From: Dolichospermum sp.
GTDB lineage: Bacteria; Cyanobacteriota; Cyanobacteriia; Cyanobacteriales; Nostocaceae
Reading direction: 5' to 3'
Length of the DNA: 21,703 bases
Assembly (NCBI GenBank): GCA_046070105.1
Contig: JBJUHT010000117.1
Span: forward strand, 1-21,703
Part shown: positions 7,571-21,703 of the stretch, piece by piece
Numbering within the stretch: position 1 is the stretch's first letter
Layout: each line of letters opens with the position of its first letter
The notes under the pieces: model-generated
What the model saw: only the letters and a program-made list of their open reading frames with translations
What the model was told of the DNA's origin: nothing
Databases searched by the model: none
Position numbers and translations under genes: made by a program

Positions 7571-8690
7571 TCCTAAATGATTTATGATAAAACACCATAG
7601 TCATGAAGTTTAGGGAAGTCAAAAATTTGACAATTAATCGAGAGTTCAAATAACGCTTTGACTACGGCGAAAGAATGACAGAAAAAATAAAACTCTCTGA
7701 TTAGTCGTTTTGCTTGCAACCAAATATCTTCCACCGGATTCTGTTGTGGTGCATTTGGGGCAAATCTCAAGCAGGTAATCAGCCATTGTTCTTTTTCAAG
7801 TTCACGATTTAATGAATCTAGATAATCTTGAATTTCTTGTGAACGGTGATAACTTGCACCATCCCAGATTATTAAAAGTTTGGCTTCAGGACGCTGTTGG
7901 CGGAGGTATCCTACAAAATTAATTGTGTTTTTAGTATCACCTTTTTCAGCCGCATAAGTGATAAATTCTTTGATTTTATAATCCAATGCACCGAAATATG
8001 TTTGTTTATAACGAGCATTTACAACTGGTATTGTGACTCGTTCATTAGTTTTTCCCCAGACATAACCACAGATGTCTCCCCAAAGTAAATGACATTCATC
8101 AACCATGAACACAACTAGCTCTCCTGACTCTATTTCGGTTCTTCGCGTCTCCAACAACTCACAAATCTCTTTTTTTTGAGTCCACTAATTCTTGGTCATA
8201 TTTTGGATTATTTGCTTGAGTTTTCTTCCAACTAATACTAGCTGCATCAAATAAATCGTAGTAACTTTGTTTCGAGGAGAATGTCACTCCATATTTTGAG
8301 GCAATTTGGTATTCTAATTCGTTTAACGTCCATCTATCCTTAGTTTGTAACCATTCAATTACCTCGGCACGTTGAATATTATTCAGAAACCCTTTACTGC
8401 CTTTATGTCCTAGTTTTAACCCATCAATCCCCATTTGAAAAAATGCTTTTTTATAGGTACTAATAAAGCCAGATGAGACACCTAATATTGACATTATCTC
8501 TTCATGTTTGTATCCAAATAGGAGCATTTTTACTGCGGTAGCCCGCTTGATTTCACGCGGTTGGTTAGGTTGGTTACTATTTTTGATAAAATCTGCTAAT
8601 AACTGCATCCACATCCTCACACCTACATCTTAGTTTTAAACGTTACTTTTTATTTGTATCAGTATTTTCTCATGAATGATTCCGGATTGC
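7567..8690 (-). mobile_element. IS630-family (Tc1/mariner superfamily) insertion sequence, 1124 bp, flanked by a TA target-site duplication
   Basis: Imperfect terminal inverted repeats: gcaatcctaaatgatttatga (7567-7587) against the reverse complement of 8670-8690, 17/21 matches by hand. TA at 7565-7566 and at 8691-8692. It encodes an HTH plus DDE transposase. Confidence 0.85.
7582..8620 (-). CDS. IS630-family transposase in two frames: orfA 8159-8620 (HTH), and orfB 7582-8157 (DDE; frame open from 8184). The frames join at an A8 run.
   Basis: orfB carries VDECHLLWGD, IWDGASYHRS and QQNPVEDIWLQAKR (D, D, E). The frames overlap at ctcAAAAAAAAgag (8170-8177). Fusion needs a +1 shift or loss of one A. 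Confidence 0.85.
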
Positions 8691-12011: not shown

Positions 12012-12280
12012 GTCAATTTTTTGAGGAACTTTTGCAAGTTAAATCTAATCTAATTAAGTCGGCAATTATCCACCCTCTCTCAAAGATAATTAGTGAGGTA
12101 AAAGAGGGTGTTGATAGTTGGATAAAAAATATCATAAGCTTGTCAAGTTTCCTCTGATTGCGCCTTTTTATTACGCTAACATCAAAAATGACTATATTAA
12201 TCAGCAAGACTGATGCAAAATAACGAAAATTTGATTTATAATACAAGTATTAAGTAAATAAAATATATGTAGTTTTGATC

Positions 12281-13528
12281 ATGCTGAAAAAACTCATTCT
12301 CGAAAATTGGAAAAGTTTCCGTTATGCTGAACTTCCACTTGATCCTTTAACTGTGCTTATTGGCACTAATGCAAGTGGTAAGTCTAATGTGGTTGAAGCT
12401 TTGGAATTTTTGCAAAGAATAGCTAACGGTGAAAATCTTGAAACAGCTTTAGCAGGAGATAAAACACTTTCTTCTATTCGTGGTGGTGTAGAATGGGCTG
12501 CAAGAAAACCAGAAAATGAGTTTACTTTAAAGGTACTAATTTCAGGTGAGAATGATCAAACAGATTATTTATATGTTATCAAAATTCAAATATTACCTAT
12601 CGTAAAAGTTAAAAGCGAATACATTGAAAATAAATCATTAGAAGAAAATTATTACATTAAATACTTTACAGTTACATCTGATGACCATACGACTAAAAGC
12701 GGACTTAAAGCATTAAGAAATGACATTAATATTCACGATCTTGAAGTAAATCAAATATCTTATGAATTTGAAACAGATAGATTGGTTATAGGTAAGGAAT
12801 ATGAGGAACAATATTTACCATTAAGAAATCAGGCTAAAGATTTGGTAGCCTCTATTTTGGGGAATACTTTAATTCTAAATCCAATACCATCTCAAATGCG
12901 TGATTTTTCACGACTTTCTGAAAACCTAGAAAATGACTGTTCAAATATAGCTGGAGTATTAGCAGTATTAACAGATGATAAAAAAACAGAAATTGAAAAT
13001 ACGCTATCTGAATATTTAAAAGATTTACCAGAAGGTGATATTAAAAAAGTATGGGCGGAAAAAGTTGGTAGATTTGGATATGATGCAATGCTTTACTGTC
13101 AAGAAGAATGGAAATCAGGAGAAATCATAGAAATTGATGCTAGAAGTATGTCAGATGGAACATTACGCTTTCTAGCCATTCTCACAGCATTATTAACTCG
13201 TCCTGAAGGTAGTCAAATTGTCATAGAAGAAATAGATAATGGTTTACATCCTTCCCGTGCAGCCTTACTGGTGAAAATATTAAAAGAAATTGGCAGTAAA
13301 CGCAATATTGATATTTTACTCACCACCCATAACCCAGCTTTATTAGATGCTTTTGGTTCGGAAATAGTTCCCTTTGTAGTTGTCGCACATCGAGATTCAG
13401 AAACAGGAGAAAGTAAACTTACCCTTTTAGAAAATATTGACAACTTCTCCAAATTATTTGCATCTTATTCCTTGGGACAAATGACAACTAAAGGCGCAAT
13501 TGAACGCAGCCTTTCTCATGGGGAGTAA
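12281..13528 (+). CDS. ABC/SMC-like AAA ATPase (AAA_15/AAA_21-type, RecF/OLD N-domain-like)
   Basis: LILENWKSFRY...VLIGTNASGKSN (Walker A), SDGTLRFLAILTALL (signature-like), IVIEEIDNGLHP (Walker B), LLTTHNPALLD (H-loop). The ATG at 12281 is preferred over the TTG at 12275. Confidence 0.9.
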   Translation: MLKKLILENWKSFRYAELPLDPLTVLIGTNASGKSNVVEALEFLQRIANGENLETALAGDKTLSSIRGGVEWAARKPENEFTLKVLISGENDQTDYLYVIKIQILPIVKVKSEYIENKSLEENYYIKYFTVTSDDHTTKSGLKALRNDINIHDLEVNQISYEFETDRLVIGKEYEEQYLPLRNQAKDLVASILGNTLILNPIPSQMRDFSRLSENLENDCSNIAGVLAVLTDDKKTEIENTLSEYLKDLPEGDIKKVWAEKVGRFGYDAMLYCQEEWKSGEIIEIDARSMSDGTLRFLAILTALLTRPEGSQIVIEEIDNGLHPSRAALLVKILKEIGSKRNIDILLTTHNPALLDAFGSEIVPFVVVAHRDSETGESKLTLLENIDNFSKLFASYSLGQMTTKGAIERSLSHGE

Positions 13529-13536
13529 TTAAAAAT

Positions 13537-14058
13537 ATGAGAAAAGTTTTATTAATAGATACATCTTTATTGTGCGTTTGGTTAAACGTTCCAGGTAAAG
13601 AAACTACTGGTAATAATAAATGGGACTTTGAACTTGTTAACGAGAAAATTCTCACAGAAATTGAAAAAGGAACAACCTTGGTACTTCCATTAGCCACAGT
13701 GATAGAAACAGGAAATCATATTGCTCAAGCTAAAACTACAAATTCAGATAGTAAAAGAATAACATCAGAAAAATTTGCTGAAATTATGATTTATGCGGCC
13801 GACGAAAAAAGTCCTTGGGCTGCTTTTCGTGAACAAATTGTACTATGGGAAGCGGAAGGATTAAAAAATTTAGCAGAAAAATTTCCTAATCAAGTTGTAG
13901 AAAAAACTTCTATGGGAGATGCGAGTATTGTAGTCTTGGGTTGGTATTATCACCAAAAAGGTTTTCATGTAGAATTTCTGACAGATGATAATGGTTTAAT
14001 ATCTCAACAACCACCACAACCTAACCCACCGACACGCCGCAGTAGTCGCGGAAAATAA
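13537..14058 (+). CDS. PIN-like nuclease-fold protein, partner of the upstream ATPase, with a Pro-rich basic tail
   Basis: Acidic residues sit in PIN-like positions: VLLIDTSLL, TVIETGNH, MGDASIVVLG, FLTDDNG. The start is 8 nt after the ATPase stop. Confidence 0.65.
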   Translation: MRKVLLIDTSLLCVWLNVPGKETTGNNKWDFELVNEKILTEIEKGTTLVLPLATVIETGNHIAQAKTTNSDSKRITSEKFAEIMIYAADEKSPWAAFREQIVLWEAEGLKNLAEKFPNQVVEKTSMGDASIVVLGWYYHQKGFHVEFLTDDNGLISQQPPQPNPPTRRSSRGK

Positions 14059-14251: not shown

Positions 14252-15445
14252 ATGCTGAATAAACTCAATCATTTACACATCAAGAACTTCCGCTCCCTGG
14301 CAGATGTTCATATTTCACCTGATTCTCTTAACATTCTCTTTGGACCAAACGGGGCGGGAAAATCAACATTTCTAGATACAATCTGGTTTATTAGAGATTG
14401 TGCAATTAGAGGAGTTGATTCAGCTTCCTCATTTAGAGATCATGGAATTGGTATTCTTTGGGATGGGGCAAGTGAAACAGACAATATATTAATTGAAATA
14501 GAAGATGAATCAACTAAATATGAAGTCTCATTTGGATTATCTTCTGGGAGAATTGAAGCTTTTGCGGGTGAAAGATTAGTTAATAAAGTTAATAATCAAT
14601 TACTTATTAATAGAACCATAGGTAGTGATAAAGCAACATTTTATCAATTTATGGGAGAAGATGAAACTACTATCACTCTCAGAGAACCAGAAAAACTTGC
14701 CCTAACTAGCTATGTAGCCTTTGGGAAAGGTGATGGTGCTGCATCAGAGTTAGACAAATTACTTCGTGCTGCACGTTCTTATCATTTAAGAGGTGCTTCT
14801 CTATTTAATCTGAGAAGAGCCGGTTCAGAATCAGAACCTGGTGATAGATTACAAGATAGATGTGAAAATTTATGGTCTGTTTTGAGAAACTTACATGATA
14901 GACAAGTAATTGATGATAGATATGACAAAATTATGAAATTTATGCGCGAAAGTTTCCCAGCTTTCGATGGTTTATATTTTGAGCAAACTGGTAGAAATAC
15001 AGTTTATGCAAATTTTTTAGATAAAAGACGACGTAAACCAATTCAAGCATCAGGAGTATCTGACGGATATATTCAAATGCTGATTAATCTCACGGCTTTA
15101 TTTTCTGAAAAACCCAATGGTTATTCCTTAATTTTATTAGATGAACCTGATATATCTCTTCATCCTTGGGCATTAGCGGTTTTTTCTAAAGCAGTGAAAC
15201 TGGCTACAGAAAAATTCAATAAACAAGTATTTATTGCCACTCATTCACCAGTTTTAATTAGTCAATTTGAACCACAAAATATATGGGCTACGGAACTTGA
15301 CAAAAATGGTCAAACTGTGATGAAAAGGGTTAGCGAAATAACAGATATTCAAGATTTGTTAGAAGAATATGCTACAGGTTCATTATATATGGCTGAAATG
15401 ATTGCCCCCCAGAGTAAGTCTGATGCTGAGGAATTAAGTCAATGA
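14252..15445 (+). CDS. ABC/SMC-like AAA ATPase (AAA_21-type)
   Basis: LHIKNFRSL...ILFGPNGAGKST (Walker A), SDGYIQMLINLTALF, LILLDEPDISLHP (Walker B), FIATHSPVLIS (H-loop). Confidence 0.9.
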   Translation: MLNKLNHLHIKNFRSLADVHISPDSLNILFGPNGAGKSTFLDTIWFIRDCAIRGVDSASSFRDHGIGILWDGASETDNILIEIEDESTKYEVSFGLSSGRIEAFAGERLVNKVNNQLLINRTIGSDKATFYQFMGEDETTITLREPEKLALTSYVAFGKGDGAASELDKLLRAARSYHLRGASLFNLRRAGSESEPGDRLQDRCENLWSVLRNLHDRQVIDDRYDKIMKFMRESFPAFDGLYFEQTGRNTVYANFLDKRRRKPIQASGVSDGYIQMLINLTALFSEKPNGYSLILLDEPDISLHPWALAVFSKAVKLATEKFNKQVFIATHSPVLISQFEPQNIWATELDKNGQTVMKRVSEITDIQDLLEEYATGSLYMAEMIAPQSKSDAEELSQ

Positions 15446-16240
15446 ATGAAGAAAATAATAATAGCCAGCCATGTAATCTTTTTGAATTTGGATTAATTGT
15501 TACAGGTGAAACTGAAGAAGAGCATCTACCAAGCTTATTGAAAAATCTCACGAAAACTGGTATATGTACATTTAAAATTATTAGGCGTATTGGACAGCTT
15601 TCGCCTAGAACTTCTGTTAAAAAACATACTTTATCTGTTATTGGAACAAACAAGAAGGATTTGAATCAAAATCAGCAAATAATTGGTCGTACAGCTAGAG
15701 ACTATTTATTAAAAAATCCATGTAGATATCTATTATTGGTGGATGACTTAGAAAAAGACCGAGTGAACAAAGCACCACAAGTTTTTCGGGTATATAAAGA
15801 AGCACTGGATGGCATTTTACTAGCACAAAAAAAATCGGGCTTCAGTTCATTTTTTAGCAAACATGATTGAAGCTTACTACTTCGCTGATTCTCACGCAAT
15901 CAATAAAGCTCTAGGAACTTCTTTAGAAGATCATTCAGAAGATGTTGAAAAAATACCCCATCCTAAAAATGACTTAAAAAAGATATATCCTGGTTTTGAT
16001 GAAAAAGAAGATGGTGGAAAAATACTAAAATTTCTCAGAGTTGAACATATTTTAGCTCGTCCTCATACCTGTGCATATCTGAGAACTTTATTTTATTGGT
16101 GCTACCAAGTTTTACAAAAACACCCATATCCAGAAATTCTAGAACCATTCCAGGCTGAACAATATCACTTTCGTGTTGGCATCTTAAGTGAGGTAACAAG
16201 AAAACAATTAGACAATATGGCGGAAAACCCTACAGCCTAA
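15442..16240 (+). pseudogene. TOPRIM-like / DUF4276-like partner of the ATPase, split into two frames (15442-15870 and 15824-16240) at an A8 run
   Basis: ATGA start/stop overlap with the ATPase gene. GLIVTGETEEEHLP (TOPRIM-type Glu), YLLLVDDLEKD (DxD-like), then MIEAYYFAD in the +1 frame. The frames overlap at A8 (15827-15834). Confidence 0.65.
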
Positions 16241-16333: not shown

Positions 16334-17806
16334 ATGCTTACAAACACCCTACTTCTCTCGAATCAACTTCCTAGTTTACAATATTCATCCACCACAGAAC
16401 GCTTCGATGACACTTGGGAAGCCCCCCTGGCAACCCTTTTAGGACTAGGACGCGCCGCCGGGGCAGATTTTGTAGAATACTTCCTAGAACGCCGCAACTA
16501 CATCAGTTGTCTAGCGGAAGATGACACCATTACCAGCATTTCCCCCAGTTTAGCCACCGGTGCGGGAGTGCGCGTATTTCGCGGTAAAGCTGACTGCTAC
16601 GTTAGCACCAATAACCTCACATTTGCGGGTTTAAAAGCAGCTTTAGAAAAAGCACTTTCTATTTTGGGACTACAATTACCAGGTCCTAGTGGCTTCATTC
16701 CCGAAATCAACCTGGAATTACTCAGGGACTACGCCAGCAAACGCGGTAAAGACGCTTGGCTACCCTTATGTAGTTCTATCCGGGAAATGGGAGAAGTTCT
16801 CCTTGATGGTACAGCCCAACTGAACAAAAAAGCTACCCACGTCCAATCTCGCCGCGCTTCCTACTTCCGTGACTGGCAAGAAGTATTAGTTGCTGCCAGT
16901 GATGGTACATTTGCCCGTGATATCCGCCTCACCCAGTCCGTGGGCTTTAATCTGCTTTGTGCTGACGGCGCTAACCGTTCCTCTATTGCTGAACGGGCGG
17001 GTAATACCAGTGACGCTAACTTCCTGAGAACCTGGGATTATCAACAAGCCTCCGAACAAATCGCCGAATCTGCCGGTAAAATGCTTTATGCAGATTACGT
17101 AGAATCAGGAACTTACCCCATTATCATGGCCAATCATTTTGGCGGCGTAATTTTCCACGAAGCTTGCGGACACCTTTTAGAAACCACCCAAATTGAACAC
17201 AAAACCACACCATTTGCTGATAAAAAAGGTGAAAAAATTGCCCATGAAAGCCTGACGGCTTGGGACGAAGGACGGGCAGAAAATGCCTTTGGTACAATTG
17301 ATATGGACGATGAAGGAATGCCCGCTCAAAGAACATTATTAATTGAAAAAGGCATCCTCAAAAACTTCCTCGCTGATAGAACCGGTTCAGTGCGGACTGG
17401 ACACCCCAGAACAGGTAGTGGCCGCCGTCAAAATTACACTTTTGCTGCTGCTAGTCGGATGCGAAATACATATATTGATTGTGGAGAACATACAACAGAA
17501 GACCTATTTTCCTCCGTTGATAAAGGTATTTACTGTAAGAAAATGGGTGGTGGTAGTGTAGGCGCAACAGGCCAATTTAACTTTAGCGTTGACGAAGCTT
17601 ACTTAATAGAAAATGGCAAAATTACCAAACCATTAAAAGGTGCGACCCTCATCGGTGAAGCGAAGGAAATCATGAATAAAATTTCCCTATGTTCCCAAGA
17701 TTTAGAACTAGCTCCCGGCTTTTGTGGTTCAGTTAGCGGCAGCATTTACACCACAGTTGGACAACCCCATATTAAGGTTGATTCTATTACCGTTGGCGGT
17801 AGATAA
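16334..17806 (+). CDS. tldD: TldD metalloprotease
   Basis: 490 aa with the HEACGH zinc-binding motif ([12 protein letters not shown]), and a C-terminus GQFNFSV...[14 protein letters not shown] typical of the TldD/PmbA family. Confidence 0.95.
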
Positions 17807-17841: not shown

Positions 17842-18132
17842 GTGAATGAGCAACAGTTTAAGACCAGAACAAAACAACTTGCATTAAGAGTCATTCGTTT
17901 GGTTGAATCATTACCAAATACTAAAACTGCGGACGTTATTGGTAAACAGTTGTTACGCTCTGCGACTTCTGTCGGTGCTAATTATAGATCAGCTTGTCGT
18001 GCTAAGTCTACAGCTGACTTAATTGCCAAACTTAGTATTGTAGAAGAAGAAGCTGATGAAACTCTTTACTGGTTAGAACTTCTGATTGAATCAAGATTAA
18101 TAACAGTAGAAAAACTTAACAATTTAATGTAA
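17842..18132 (+). CDS. Four-helix-bundle protein (23S rRNA intervening-sequence protein family), GTG start, truncated by a TAA nonsense codon
   Basis: GKQLLRSATSVGANYRSACRAKS...IVEEEADETLYWLELL is the family core. After TAA (18130-18132) the same frame continues ETSEILAMTVASIKTLRQKPK* to 18198, which matches the usual C-terminus. Confidence 0.8.
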   Translation: MNEQQFKTRTKQLALRVIRLVESLPNTKTADVIGKQLLRSATSVGANYRSACRAKSTADLIAKLSIVEEEADETLYWLELLIESRLITVEKLNNLM

Positions 18133-18285: not shown

Positions 18286-19626
18286 ATGTCTAACATTCAA
18301 GAAATCGCCACCTACGCTCAAGAAAATGCCGCTAAACTTGGCATTAAAAAATTCGACATTTACGGCTCAACTGTAGATGATACCAGCGTTCAAGTTGACC
18401 AAGGTGAACCCAAACAAGTCAAGGCTTCCAATCGTTCTGGGGTAACAGTTCGGGTATGGAATGAAGAAAATACAATGGGTGTTACCAGTACCACAGATGT
18501 AGATGATAAGGGATTAGAATTAGCTCTAAAAACTGCTTATGAAGCCAGCTTTTTTGGTGTGAAAGAAAATGTTCCTGATTTTAGTCCAGAAGCAACTATT
18601 CCTATCCCTAATAAACATCAAGAAAAAGCTCTCCAAGCACCTGTTTCTGAACTAATAGAAAAGCTCTTAGTGGCAGAAAAAGAATTATTAGCAACTCATC
18701 CTGCTATTAAGGGAGTACCTTATAATGGTTTAGCACAGAGAGATATTGACAGATTTTATCTCAATAGTGAAGGTGCTTTAAGAACTGAATCTCATTCTTT
18801 AGCTTCTATTTATTTGTACAGCAAAACTGAAGAAGAAGGTAAAAAACCCCGCAGTGCTGGTGCTTATCGAGTTAAGGAAAGTGTTGCTGATTTAGATATT
18901 GCTGGTTGTATCAAGGAAACTGCTCAGAAAACTATCAGTCATTTGCATTATGAAAAAATCCAAACTGGTAAATATCAAGTGGTTTTTTCTCCTGAAGCTT
19001 TTTTAAGTTTATTGGGGGCTTTTTCTAATTTATTTAACGCCCAAAATATTCTGGATAATCAAAGTTTATCGAAAGCTGATGATATTGGTAAAGCAATTGC
19101 TTCACCTTTACTTTCAGTTTATGATGATGCTTTACATCCTGCTAATATTGGTGCAGAAAGTTTTGATGGTGAAGGGACTCCAACTCGACAAATTAAGTTA
19201 ATAGAAAAGGGCATTTTAACCAGTTTTTTACATAGTGCGGGAACTGCTAAAAGGTTAAATGCTCAACCTACTGGTAATGCTAGTATTGGCGCAAAAGTTA
19301 GCGTTAGTCCGAATTTTTATCACGTTTTTGCGGCGGAAATTCCTGAGAAAGAATTGAGTCTAGAAACTGCGGAAAATGTGATTTTAATTGATGATTTACA
19401 AGCTCTTCATGCGGGTGTTAAGGCTTTACAAGGTTCTTTTTCTTTACCTTTTGATGGTTGGTTAGTTAATAAAGGTGAGAAAACCAGTATTGAGTCTGCA
19501 ACGGTAGCCGGTGATTTCTTGGAACTTCTCAAATCTATTGTTTATGTGGAGAAAGAGGTGGAATTAACACCAGGAGGTGTTGCTCCCAGAGTTTGGGTGA
19601 GTGAACTTTCTATTACTGGAGATTAA
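18286..19626 (+). CDS. pmbA: PmbA/TldE (TldD/PmbA family protease partner)
   Basis: 446 aa. It has the TldD/PmbA family layout, lies next to tldD, and has the C-terminal pattern GSFSLPFDGWLVNKGE...ATVAGDFLELL. Confidence 0.9.
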   Translation: MSNIQEIATYAQENAAKLGIKKFDIYGSTVDDTSVQVDQGEPKQVKASNRSGVTVRVWNEENTMGVTSTTDVDDKGLELALKTAYEASFFGVKENVPDFSPEATIPIPNKHQEKALQAPVSELIEKLLVAEKELLATHPAIKGVPYNGLAQRDIDRFYLNSEGALRTESHSLASIYLYSKTEEEGKKPRSAGAYRVKESVADLDIAGCIKETAQKTISHLHYEKIQTGKYQVVFSPEAFLSLLGAFSNLFNAQNILDNQSLSKADDIGKAIASPLLSVYDDALHPANIGAESFDGEGTPTRQIKLIEKGILTSFLHSAGTAKRLNAQPTGNASIGAKVSVSPNFYHVFAAEIPEKELSLETAENVILIDDLQALHAGVKALQGSFSLPFDGWLVNKGEKTSIESATVAGDFLELLKSIVYVEKEVELTPGGVAPRVWVSELSITGD

Positions 19627-19635
19627 TAATTACCC

Positions 19636-19659
19636 CACCCCCTGCTCCTGTAGGGGGTG
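19636..19659 (+). terminator. GC-rich hairpin caccccct-gctcctgt-agggggtg, 10 nt after the pmbA stop. Candidate intrinsic terminator.
   Basis: 8-bp stem with an 8-nt loop, followed by cttgactttta. Confidence 0.5.
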
Positions 19660-19713
19660 CTTGACTTTTATCCTATCTTCCACACCCTAAACTTAAAGGT
19701 AAAACAATTTTGC

Positions 19714-19722
19714 TGTTATAAT
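19714..19722 (+). promoter_or_regulatory. Extended -10 element TGtTATAAT upstream of the NLR-like gene
   Basis: tgttataat lies about 38 nt upstream of the ATG at 19760. No good -35 was seen. Confidence 0.3.
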
Positions 19723-19759
19723 CACACTACCAACTATATAAAAAATAAGGTCTTGATTT

Positions 19760-20116
19760 ATGGATCCTATTACCGTCGTGGCTGGAATAGTTACAATTAT
19801 TTTAACTGGAGCCTTGACCCGTGTCGGCGAACTTTCTTTAGATGGGGCAATCTTAAACTTGAAGAAATTGATTGAAGCTAAATCCCCTCAAATTATTAAT
19901 CAATTACAAGCGACTGGTGGAAATCAAGCTCCTTCACCTGAAACTATTGATGCTGTAGCAACTTTGATTAAGAATGACCCCGATATTCAACAACTAGCAG
20001 AACAGGTAGCAACGGAAAACAAATCCAACCCTTATATTCTCAGTTATATGCGAGATGTGGGTATGGTTGTTCATGGGGGAACAGTTCAAAATCCTGTTTT
20101 TAACTTTAACAACTGA
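19760..20116 (+). CDS. N-terminal module of the STAND NTPase: hydrophobic N-terminal helix, helical domain, and a G/N/Q/V-rich tail. It ends at an in-frame TGA.
   Basis: MDPITVVAGIVTIILTGAL..., and the tail VGMVVHGGTVQNPVFNFNN*. It is in the same reading frame as the downstream NB-ARC ORF (444 nt offset). Confidence 0.7.
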   Translation: MDPITVVAGIVTIILTGALTRVGELSLDGAILNLKKLIEAKSPQIINQLQATGGNQAPSPETIDAVATLIKNDPDIQQLAEQVATENKSNPYILSYMRDVGMVVHGGTVQNPVFNFNN

Positions 20117-20203
20117 CTGTCGTCGCCTGTTAGGGAGCAGGTAAAACAAAACCCTTCCAATTTACCAAGTAGTGGTGTCGCTAAGTTTGTTGGACGTGAT
20201 GAT

Positions 20204-21703
20204 GTGTTAACTCAGTTAGCAACTCAGTTAGAAACCTGCGACAGAATTGCCATTTCCACATTAACTGGTATGGGAGGCATTGGTAAATCTGAGTTAGCTT
20301 TGCAGTACGCTCAGCAAGAATATAAGAAAAACACCTATTTGGGTGGAATTACTTGGTTAAATGTGGCTGATAGTGATGTAGGTACAAGCATTTTAAGCTT
20401 TGCTCAGCTTTATCTGGGATTAACCTTGCCCACAGAAGGAATTTTAGAAGAGAGGGTGCGATTCTGTTGGCAAAATTGGTTTAAAAATGAAAAAGACGAA
20501 TCATTAATTATTTTTGATGATGTACGTGAATATAAACAAATTAAGGCATACTTACCTCCTCAAACGGAAAAACGGTTTAAAGTTATTATTACGACACGTA
20601 ATAACAATTTATCAGCAACCATTCAGACGCTACAGTTACCAATTTTAGGAGAAGATGCAGCATTAGATTTATTACGCTCCTATGTTGAAGATGGTCGCAT
20701 TGACCAGGAGTTAGATGCAGCAAAATCACTTTGTCGGGATTTGGGGTATTTACCTTTAGCTTTAGAACTAGTGGCACGCTTATTAAGACGACGTAATAAC
20801 TGGAGGAGTGTTGAAGATATTTGGAGAAGATTAAGTGAGAAGAGATTGAGCCTGCAAAGATATGAAAATTTTGATCAGGAAATGACTGCAGAAAGAGGTG
20901 TTGAAGCAGCTTTTGACTTGACTTGGGAAAACTTAGATGAGAATAGTCGGCTCCTAGCTATGTACCTGAGTTTGTTTGCTCTGGCTCCTGTTTCTAAATC
21001 CTTAATAGATGATTTGTTAGGTGAGCAAGATCCTGATGATATTGAGGAGTGGTTAGCTGATAATTTGGTGAACCTTAATTTAGTTAATGATTTAGGGAAT
21101 AATTGGTATGAATTACATACATTAATTCGGGTTTATTTAAGAGAAAAGCTAGAGGAGTCAGCATTTAAGGAAGAAGCCAAACGTGCCTATTGTAAAGTAA
21201 TGGTTGATATTGCAAAAGATGTTAATGAGACATTAACACTAGCAGATGTTGCGAGATTAAAACCGTATATTGATCACCTAAAAATAGCAGTAGACGAACT
21301 GAATGAATGGTTAGGGGAAGAGAATTTAATCTGGCCTTTTATCGGGTTAGGTCGGTTTTATGAAGGACAGGGATTTTATGACCAAGCTGCTCCTTATAGA
21401 GAACAATGTTTAATTGTGAGTGAAAAGAGATTGGGAGAAAACCATCCTTATGTGGCAACCAGTCTGAACAATCTAGCGGGACTTTATGAGAATCAAGGGA
21501 GATACACAGAAGCAGAACCCCTGTATATACGCGCCCTCTCTATTAGAGAACAGCAATTGGGAGAAAACCATCCTTTGGTAGTAACTATTCTCAAGAATCT
21601 CGCCGGTCTTTATCAAGCTCAAGGAAGAGATGGAGATGCAGCATCTATTCTTCAACGCGCTCAATCTATTCAAGAAAGGCTACTCAAATCTAATGATTCT
21701 TGA
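20204..21703 (+). CDS. NB-ARC (STAND/NLR-like) NTPase with C-terminal TPR repeats. The conserved N-terminal lead-in extends upstream to 20117.
   Basis: GMGGIGKSELALQYA (P-loop), LIIFDDV (Walker B), KVIITTRN, GYLPLALELV (GLPL), and TPR units such as ATSLNNLAGLYENQGRYTEAEPLYIRAL. NLPSSGVAKFVGRDD, upstream of the annotated GTG, is part of the usual NB-ARC lead-in. Confidence 0.9.
   Translation: MLTQLATQLETCDRIAISTLTGMGGIGKSELALQYAQQEYKKNTYLGGITWLNVADSDVGTSILSFAQLYLGLTLPTEGILEERVRFCWQNWFKNEKDESLIIFDDVREYKQIKAYLPPQTEKRFKVIITTRNNNLSATIQTLQLPILGEDAALDLLRSYVEDGRIDQELDAAKSLCRDLGYLPLALELVARLLRRRNNWRSVEDIWRRLSEKRLSLQRYENFDQEMTAERGVEAAFDLTWENLDENSRLLAMYLSLFALAPVSKSLIDDLLGEQDPDDIEEWLADNLVNLNLVNDLGNNWYELHTLIRVYLREKLEESAFKEEAKRAYCKVMVDIAKDVNETLTLADVARLKPYIDHLKIAVDELNEWLGEENLIWPFIGLGRFYEGQGFYDQAAPYREQCLIVSEKRLGENHPYVATSLNNLAGLYENQGRYTEAEPLYIRALSIREQQLGENHPLVVTILKNLAGLYQAQGRDGDAASILQRAQSIQERLLKSNDS

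Follow-up and report, generated by a model that had tools for sequence, protein, structure and literature searches.

The window, which is the whole stretch of 21,703 nucleotides from Dolichospermum sp. analysed here, ends in a locus where the gene of a small helical protein and that of a nucleotide-binding oligomerization domain (NOD)-like receptor (NLR) lie in one reading frame. An open reading frame (ORF) of 118 aa at 19760-20116 and an NB-ARC/TPR ORF ending at 21703 share this frame, and the TGA at 20114-20116 is all that separates them. Past this stop the frame is open for 528 codons, up to the TGA at 21701-21703, the final codon of the window. Directly after the stop stands CTG (20117-20119), and the first in-frame ATG, GTG or TTG is the GTG at 20204 (offset 88). 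An earlier note on this DNA had described the shared frame, the lone TGA and the late GTG, and all three were found exactly where it had placed them. The window is AT-rich (35% GC) and favours TAA as a stop codon (11 of 17 ORFs). Its nearest relative, a Dolichospermum metagenome-assembled genome (MAG; locus L001), shares its synteny. Among relatives of the locus, the in-frame stop is conserved, no conserved start codon follows it and the frame beyond it is under purifying selection, which points to leaky termination as the probable route to the sensor.

The 118-aa protein begins with a hydrophobic stretch (MDPITVVAGIVTIILTGAL) that carries an acidic residue, D2. In its AlphaFold2 model (mean predicted local distance difference test score 67.6) five helices are formed, at residues 3-20, 30-41, 43-51, 60-72 and 74-89, the first being the hydrophobic one, and the tail (residues 94-118) is disordered in the monomer. 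Size, N-terminal hydrophobic helix, D2 and five-helix model fit the description of Bell effectors (Dyrka 2020, bioRxiv 10.1101/2020.01.06.895854). The earlier note had taken this module for a Bell/HeLo-like domain, and the character that it proposed stands (helix 1, acidic residue 2, five helices, disordered tail), whereas homology found no confirmation: the protein has no meaningful match in Pfam, NCBIfam or PADLOC, a profile search of the PDB sequences returned nothing, and the best Foldseek hit of the model against the PDB has a meaningless E of 2.5.

Relatives of the 118-aa protein are all small. A word-indexed search of 5.8 billion proteins gave 36, each of 74-156 aa; HMMER, run exhaustively with a profile over 1.84 billion representatives of ~15 billion proteins, gave 26, of 49-175 aa, plus two spurious partial matches in long proteins; and the proteins reached in a search from a remote member, which come from Leptothoe, Pseudanabaena and marine MAGs, all measure 106-161 aa. 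Thus, no uninterrupted effector-NLR fusion occurs among the family members found in these searches, and because none exceeds 175 aa, the stop appears never to have been replaced by a sense codon. The ancestral single protein of 647 aa postulated earlier consequently lacks a counterpart among these proteins. In the family alignment (A1) the N-terminus is hydrophobic and invariant (G17, A18, L19, R21, V22, G23, E24 and L25), the core is conserved and the C-terminal tails are interchangeable; dN/dS (the ratio of nonsynonymous to synonymous substitution rates) of the small ORF is 0.11-0.46. The longest member, P0039 (175 aa), joins a Bell-like core in frame to an NLR winged-helix segment (FDLIWETLDENSQNLAMHLSLFALAP). 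It is a deletion remnant, and it indicates that loci of this family undergo internal deletions.

The NB-ARC/TPR identity of the downstream half is borne out by Pfam: in the post-stop translation, residues 29-245 match NB-ARC (E 6.8e-21) and residues ~401-524 match TPR_12/TPR_10 (TPR_12, E 7.2e-27). The AAA_16 alignment begins already at residue 23 (FVGRDD), upstream of GTG 20204, so that the stretch ahead of this GTG is part of the NTPase lead-in, as had been suggested from the letters alone. GTG 20204 itself is not conserved: Microcystis and Snowella have GTT there. From locus to locus the first in-frame start shifts between offsets 73, 88 and 130, and the starts chosen by gene callers vary likewise, some falling within the P-loop. 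The NLRs of the window and L001 are 92% identical and have an identical C-terminus. The idea that the window's NLR is cut short by the window end was therefore rejected; it merely has five TPR units fewer. The difference lies in the number of 42-aa units (window 21317-21688 versus L001 5558-6571), and either rapid repeat evolution or assembly collapse could account for it in these near-identical Dolichospermum loci.

Two layouts among relatives

In Dolichospermum, Microcystis, Snowella and metagenomes alike, the small gene is paired with an NB-ARC/TPR gene behind it, and this conserved pair comes in two layouts. In class A (L004/L005, L006-L008, L014, L025, L032 and L040) the stop of the small ORF reads TGA-G, TGA-A or TAG-G, non-coding DNA or toxin-antitoxin genes follow, and the NLR starts at an ATG of its own, with a copy of the effector tail motif at its N-terminus. 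Such pairing of the motif between effector and NLR is present in L005 (effector tail VSQSGIGNSQNNSFNL versus NLR IGQDGSGNTQTNIFNV / MEIKIGQDGSGNTQTNIFNV), in L006 (effector tail EQTGVTGLKVEGKAMIKIKQTI versus NLR NQTGIKDTTIGDNAQISIEQKI) and in L040, and it is the published signature of NLR pairs of the Bell/BASS (bacterial amyloid signalling sequence) type (Dyrka 2020). The toxin-antitoxin genes inserted between effector and NLR (L004/L005 at 4406-4841 and 1174-1609; L006-L008 around 4514-4663) are HicB/HicA or a RelB-like fragment.

Class B consists of the window and 25 other distinct junctions, with a single motif, an immediate stop and an in-frame NLR linker. The linker after the stop is the same as that following the N-terminal motif in class A, L(Q/S)(P/S)PVxEQVKQNPxNLPxSGVAxFVGR. 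The segment VKQNPSNL, which the earlier note had read as a faint echo of the motif, turns out to be ordinary NLR linker with no motif echo; where the NLR has its own start, it sits downstream of a real N-terminal motif (L005: ...NIFNVREQKKHQPNSHNLPNSG). On the NLR side of the window no second motif copy was found, only the linker LSSPVREQVKQNPSNLP ahead of FVGR.

The window's tail, VGMVVHGGTVQNPVFNFNN, is G/N/Q/V-rich and aligns with the class-A NLR-side motif MEIKIGQDGSGNTQTNIFNV and with the remote-branch tails KIGFVNQGTI..N.FNL; across the family and remote branches the consensus is [KD][VI]G.V..G[TG].Q.N..FNF. Its alignment with motifs shared by effector and NLR in sister loci supports, by sequence comparison, the assignment of the tail as an amyloid-signalling motif, in agreement with the resemblance pointed out in the earlier note. 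The VNQGT-type tail of the window is not listed in the published BASS and paired-motif tables, as is expected if such loci carry no NLR-side copy. Another tail type of the family, type 3 (LEKILNFANRDIN), resembles the published Microcystis BASS5 motif (IEKIVNFSQRDIN / KIVNYAQGDIN).

Remote branches of the family (L045 1808, L046 3382 and L050 998) have the same in-frame-stop layout, with tails of the form LAEKIGxVNQGxI..N.FNL. Their stops are TAG-C, TAG-T and TGA-C, and beyond them the frames continue as NB-ARC or nSTAND5 NTPases, for which gene callers place the start within the P-loop or 144 nt past the stop. The branch with a different downstream NTPase (nSTAND5) is likewise in frame. A further derivative is a common Microcystis variant (L011 3846-5142; also L012, L015, L017, L022, L024, L028, L030, L031, L035 and L036), where TGA-C and 15 linker codons are followed by a ~80-aa extension without family match in place of NB-ARC, and a TPR-only ORF comes next in a different frame. 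The resulting 97-aa extension was considered as a second read-through product and rejected, since it evolves neutrally (pN ~ pS, the proportions of nonsynonymous and synonymous differences) and is best seen as a decayed NLR behind an intact effector.

The stop itself is conserved. The 26 distinct junctions, from Dolichospermum, Microcystis (isolates included), Snowella, Microcystaceae and other cyanobacteria, all have an in-frame stop and none has a sense codon there, a count that overstates the independent observations, as the junctions share phylogeny. The first check proposed in the earlier note, whether orthologues carry a sense codon at the TGA position, is thereby answered in the negative. 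The context is TGA-C in 22 junctions, TGA-A in one, TAG-C in one and TAG-T in one, the TAG stops belonging to two remote branches. UGA followed by C is the weakest documented bacterial termination signal (PMC5289835). The residue encoded after the stop varies (L, P or Q) and the C at +4 is kept. In 23 of the 26 junctions no ATG, GTG or TTG lies ahead of FVGR or the P-loop. The distance from stop to FVGR is 23, 24, 25 or 34 codons by lineage, always in frame 0 and free of stops, and the other two frames of the linker contain stops. Over the 23 linker codons pN/pS is 0.31 in frame 0 versus 1.45 and 0.71 in the two alternative frames. In the window and six other lineages the NLR bodies run for 528-1068 codons without a stop, with dN/dS of 0.10-0.31 at dS of 1.1-1.7 (0.10-0.21 against Microcystis and Snowella orthologues). 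The same stop recurs in more than 30 independent assemblies, including those of M. aeruginosa LEGE 91341, M. ichthyoblabe FBCC-A1114 and Microcystis sp. BLCC-F210.

Candidate read-through of the stop and its alternatives

How, then, do ribosomes reach the NLR frame? From upstream it can be entered only through the stop, and the codon that follows the stop is, in most lineages, one that initiator tRNA cannot read, so that read-through is the most economical route. Judged from the sequences, deliberate read-through of the stop probably gives rise to the sensor, a possibility that the earlier note had called conceivable and that is now the best-supported reading. On balance we lean, if by a little, towards regarding the locus as a Bell/BASS-type amyloid-signalling effector and NLR cell-death system of the abortive-infection type, housed in one frame with a conserved leaky stop. 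The wider proposition, that cyanobacterial immune loci make a sensor and an amyloid-activated executioner from one frame by conserved programmed read-through, seems to us evenly poised.

According to this proposal, most ribosomes would terminate at UGA-C (20114-20117) and release the 118-aa protein, in which a helical domain that opens with a membrane-targeting helix would be followed by an amyloid-forming motif at the C-terminus. A minority would read through, probably inserting Trp, and produce a fusion of ~647 aa in the order effector, motif, linker, NB-ARC and TPR, whose junction would read DVGMVVHGGTVQNPVFNFNN-X-LSSPVR. Once triggered, the TPR/NB-ARC sensor would oligomerize, and the motifs adjacent to the NOD would gather and fold into an amyloid nucleus. 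The nucleus would then template the motif of the abundant free 118-aa protein, of which helix 1 would attack the membrane. The single motif copy would serve both partners, as the C-terminus of the free effector and as the nucleation site beside the NOD in the fusion, and since both products would contain it, class-B NLRs could do without a separate motif copy. The output may, by analogy with HET-S/NWD2 and Bab/Agp, be cell death through helix-1 membrane attack upon infection. Amyloid templating, membrane attack and a defence role are thus what we infer for the locus, and the other defence candidates in the neighbourhood of the window are consistent with the last of these.

A possible 6-bp hairpin shortly after the stop was initially assumed to stimulate read-through and has been kept as a possibility. 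It has a counterpart in all junctions of the main group (Microcystis, Snowella and Dolichospermum), with 96% of cells paired, and one compensatory change is seen, in L026, where the amino acids differ. It is not present at the equivalent place of class-A NLRs. No tRNA gene, as a candidate suppressor, was found within the window.

Several points weigh against read-through or against the system proposed around it. The case for read-through is wholly one of comparative anatomy, drawn from junctions of shared descent. Bell homology is unconfirmed by profile or fold search, Pfam and NCBIfam holding no Bell profile. Covariation in the hairpin is not significant against shuffles (43-57/500), and the hairpin is missing in the remote branches. 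Class-B NLRs are truncated in L010 (252 aa), L013 (302 aa) and L023 (107 aa), the Microcystis 97-aa extension is neutral, and in L049, a remote member with TGA-C, the frame runs for just 15 codons beyond the stop and the short contig shows no NLR; the truncated or NB-ARC-less class-B loci indicate that the NLR half is dispensable in some lineages. The closest non-identical relatives, L041 and L042 (small protein 77% identical), have TGA-ATG where the window has TGA-CTG, so that a motif-less NLR could be made there by termination-reinitiation, and CTG, a near-cognate start, abuts the stop in the window, L001, L034 and L050.

These last two points belong to a rival explanation that we consider unlikely while granting it real weight: two ordinary genes, the second of which is translated by termination-reinitiation or by internal initiation at CTG 20117 or GTG 20204 to give an NB-ARC/TPR protein without effector or motif, which would communicate with the small protein by other means. 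Gene callers do pick GTG or TTG starts further downstream, and close coupling or overlap is usual among Bell/NLR pairs (Dyrka 2020). An initiation of this kind would have to cope with a post-stop codon that in most junctions is CTA, CCA, CAG or TTC and thus not readable by initiator tRNA; no AUG, GUG or UUG abuts the stop in the window, and ATG is found only in L041/L042. The downstream GTG and TTG positions are unconserved, whereas the linker ahead of them shows protein-level selection in the stop's own frame. The NLR so produced would, in addition, have no match to the effector tail, unlike that of every class-A relative. Decay of the locus, either by a nonsense mutation in a fused gene or by loss of the NLR start, would leave only the small protein functional and the NLR frame a relic. 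The earlier note had taken such pseudogenization as the null hypothesis, and the truncated NLR frames in some loci, the neutral Microcystis variant and the deletion fusion P0039 are in line with it. Yet the frame is open over hundreds of codons in the window and six lineages at low dN/dS with synonymous sites saturated, the stop is kept across genera, indels preserve the frame and no sense-codon orthologue is seen. The conserved stop and the dN/dS of the NLR lead us to reject pseudogenization, which we regard as very improbable, and they speak equally against sequencing error. The latter, an artefact of assembly or sequencing at the TGA, has in its favour only a general possibility and one homopolymer frameshift elsewhere in the window, near 15826; with the same stop in so many independent assemblies, isolate genomes included, its probability is next to nil.

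Could the stop be recoded specifically instead? Selenocysteine might be inserted at UGA with the help of a selenocysteine insertion sequence (SECIS), or A-to-I editing of the mRNA might convert UGA and UAG to UGG. A small hairpin does follow the UGA, and editing of the A would turn both stops alike into UGG. The TAG stops of the remote branches exclude selenocysteine and any TGA-specific reassignment; together with ordinary TGA stops in neighbouring genes they led us to discard TGA-specific recoding to selenocysteine or Trp. No homologue has Cys at the site, and the remote branches lack the hairpin. An Rfam search of 19500-20400 found no SECIS or other family above threshold, only sub-threshold chance matches. 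As for editing, TadA prefers a U-A-C-G loop, which the G-A-C-U around the A does not fit. Specific recoding in either form is hardly credible.

Surroundings of the locus

The features of the locus and its neighbours are collected in Table 1. Because the terminator-like hairpin upstream closes the preceding pmbA/tldD-family gene, the effector/NLR pair appears to be its own transcription unit, and no terminator-like site was found between small ORF and NLR. Plasmid and phage collections gave neither a DNA nor a protein match, and there was no sign of a plasmid or phage location.

Table 1. Coordinates of the effector/NLR locus and of other features in the window
Feature	Position	Strand	Remarks
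Holin-family protein	659-1093	-	PF04020, Phage_holin_4_2, E 4e-29
330-aa ORF	1309-2301	-	neighbour of the FtsK/SpoIIIE-like ATPase
FtsK/SpoIIIE-like ATPase	2538-4589	-	weak PADLOC mad8/SspH matches
882-aa protein	4597-7245	-	internal repeats; multi-helix hydrophobic C-terminus
Transposase, two abutting ORFs, presumably IS630-like	7582-8620	-	HTH 8159-8620, DDE 7582-8157
PDC-M07, two-gene candidate defence system	12275-14058	+	AAA_21/AAA_15 ATPase PDC-M07A, E 5e-182; 173-aa PDC-M07B, E 1.5e-50
HEC-01A-like ABC/AAA_21 ATPase, then DUF4276 partner	14252-16240	+	
tldD-like gene	16334-17806		
96-aa "23S rRNA intervening-sequence protein"	17842-18132	+	PF05635 in L001 annotation; between tldD-like and pmbA-like genes
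pmbA-like gene	18286-19626		
Intrinsic-terminator-like hairpin and T-run	19636..19668	+	10-bp stem, 7 GC pairs, then CTTGACTTTT; ends the upstream pmbA/tldD-family gene
Candidate extended -10, TGtTATAAT	19714..19722	+	read from the letters; no -35 match, not called by consensus scan
Small ORF, 118 aa	19760..20116	+	Bell-like helical effector domain, C-terminal amyloid-type motif and TGA
Helical domain, residues 1-90	19760..20029	+	AlphaFold2 model, alignment A1
Tail motif, residues 96-118	20045..20113	+	YMRDVGMVVHGGTVQNPVFNFNN; G/N/Q/V-rich
In-frame stop with its +4 base, TGA-C	20114..20117	+	proposed read-through site
23 linker codons	20117..20185	+	LSSPVREQVKQNPSNLPSSGVAK; without ATG/GTG/TTG; first codon CTG
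Post-stop frame, 528 codons	20117..21703	+	NB-ARC NTPase and TPR sensor (NLR-like STAND protein)
Possible hairpin GCCUGU-UAGGGA-GCAGGU	20125..20142	+	begins 8 nt past the stop
GTG, first canonical in-frame start	20204..20206	+	used by gene callers
Walker A / P-loop GMGGIGKS	20267..20290	+	residue 51 of the post-stop translation
TPR repeats	21317..21688	+	five 42-aa units fewer than the L001 orthologue

Among the neighbours, the DUF4276 partner is a single 265-aa gene in L001, and in the window one additional A within an A-run near 15826 breaks it up into two ORFs (15442-15870 and 15863-16240); the frameshift may be genuine or may reflect a sequencing error in the homopolymer. The transposase, which we take from its sequence to be IS630-like, may be either frameshifted or of the programmed-frameshift type. 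Neither the 882-aa protein nor the 330-aa ORF matches any family, and 1309-7245 may be another uncharacterized module.

Comparison with known systems

The locus is most like the Bell/BASS-NLR pairs of filamentous bacteria (Dyrka 2020), with which it shares an effector of ~120 aa whose N-terminal helix is hydrophobic, whose residue 2 or 3 is acidic and which is predicted to form a five-helix domain, a G/N/Q/V-rich C-terminal motif of ~20-25 aa, a collinear NB-ARC/TPR gene directly downstream, and hosts among Nostocaceae and Microcystis. It differs from them in that the NLR, in the window and the 25 other junctions, has neither a motif copy nor a start of its own and a single motif is followed by the in-frame stop. 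A Bell-type/BASS pair, Bab/Agp of E. coli ECOR25, has been established experimentally as an abortive-infection system (Ibarlosa et al. 2024, bioRxiv 10.1101/2024.11.07.622273). The small "Babybell" effector, with its pore-lining helix 1 and C-terminal BASS motif, and amyloid templating by an adjacent sensor recall the arrangement proposed here, but Bab/Agp consists of two separate genes without an in-frame stop and gave no sequence or fold match to the 118-aa protein in the PDB searches, and its output, cell death on phage infection, was shown by experiment, whereas ours is proposed by analogy. In the fungal HET-S/NWD2-type pairs, too, an N-terminal motif of the NLR templates the C-terminal motif of a neighbouring HeLo-type pore-former. 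These pairs are eukaryotic, always have two genes and two motif copies, and use a NACHT/WD NOD.

The predicted read-through product resembles the "all-in-one" Bell-NLR proteins (Dyrka 2020) in joining effector, NB-ARC and TPR. Those proteins are encoded by an uninterrupted ORF and need no amyloid motif, whereas here a motif and a conserved stop intervene. In-frame stops or read-through are mentioned neither in Dyrka 2020 nor in Ibarlosa et al. 2024, and literature searches found no report of conserved read-through in a chromosomal bacterial immune gene.

Leaky stops that yield a major short and a minor extended product are known from the coat/A1 gene of phage Qbeta (UGA) and from retroviral gag-pol. 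As there, the extension is subject to selection and lacks an independent start; those genes are viral, and a stimulatory element is not established here. Conserved functional read-through, well known for viruses, is barely documented in cellular bacterial genes. The prfB gene (RF2) shares with our locus the conserved use of the weak UGA-C signal (PMC5289835) but responds to it by a +1 frameshift with an upstream Shine-Dalgarno element, whereas here frame 0 would continue.

If the proposal is true, the locus would be a case of chromosomal functional read-through in bacteria that sets the sensor:effector stoichiometry. The arrangement suggests a hard-wired ratio of rare sensor to abundant effector, and the short site singled out by the comparative data could serve in reporters on the tuning of leaky termination in bacteria. 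There are also consequences for annotation: gene callers give class-B NLRs arbitrary, truncated N-termini, and screens for paired motifs overlook the whole class-B group. The hosts, Dolichospermum and Microcystis, are bloom formers in which cell-death systems are of ecological interest. Beside the two-gene layout with paired motif and the all-in-one protein, class B would then constitute a third NLR architecture, and its arrangement suggests a route by which the other two could be interconverted.

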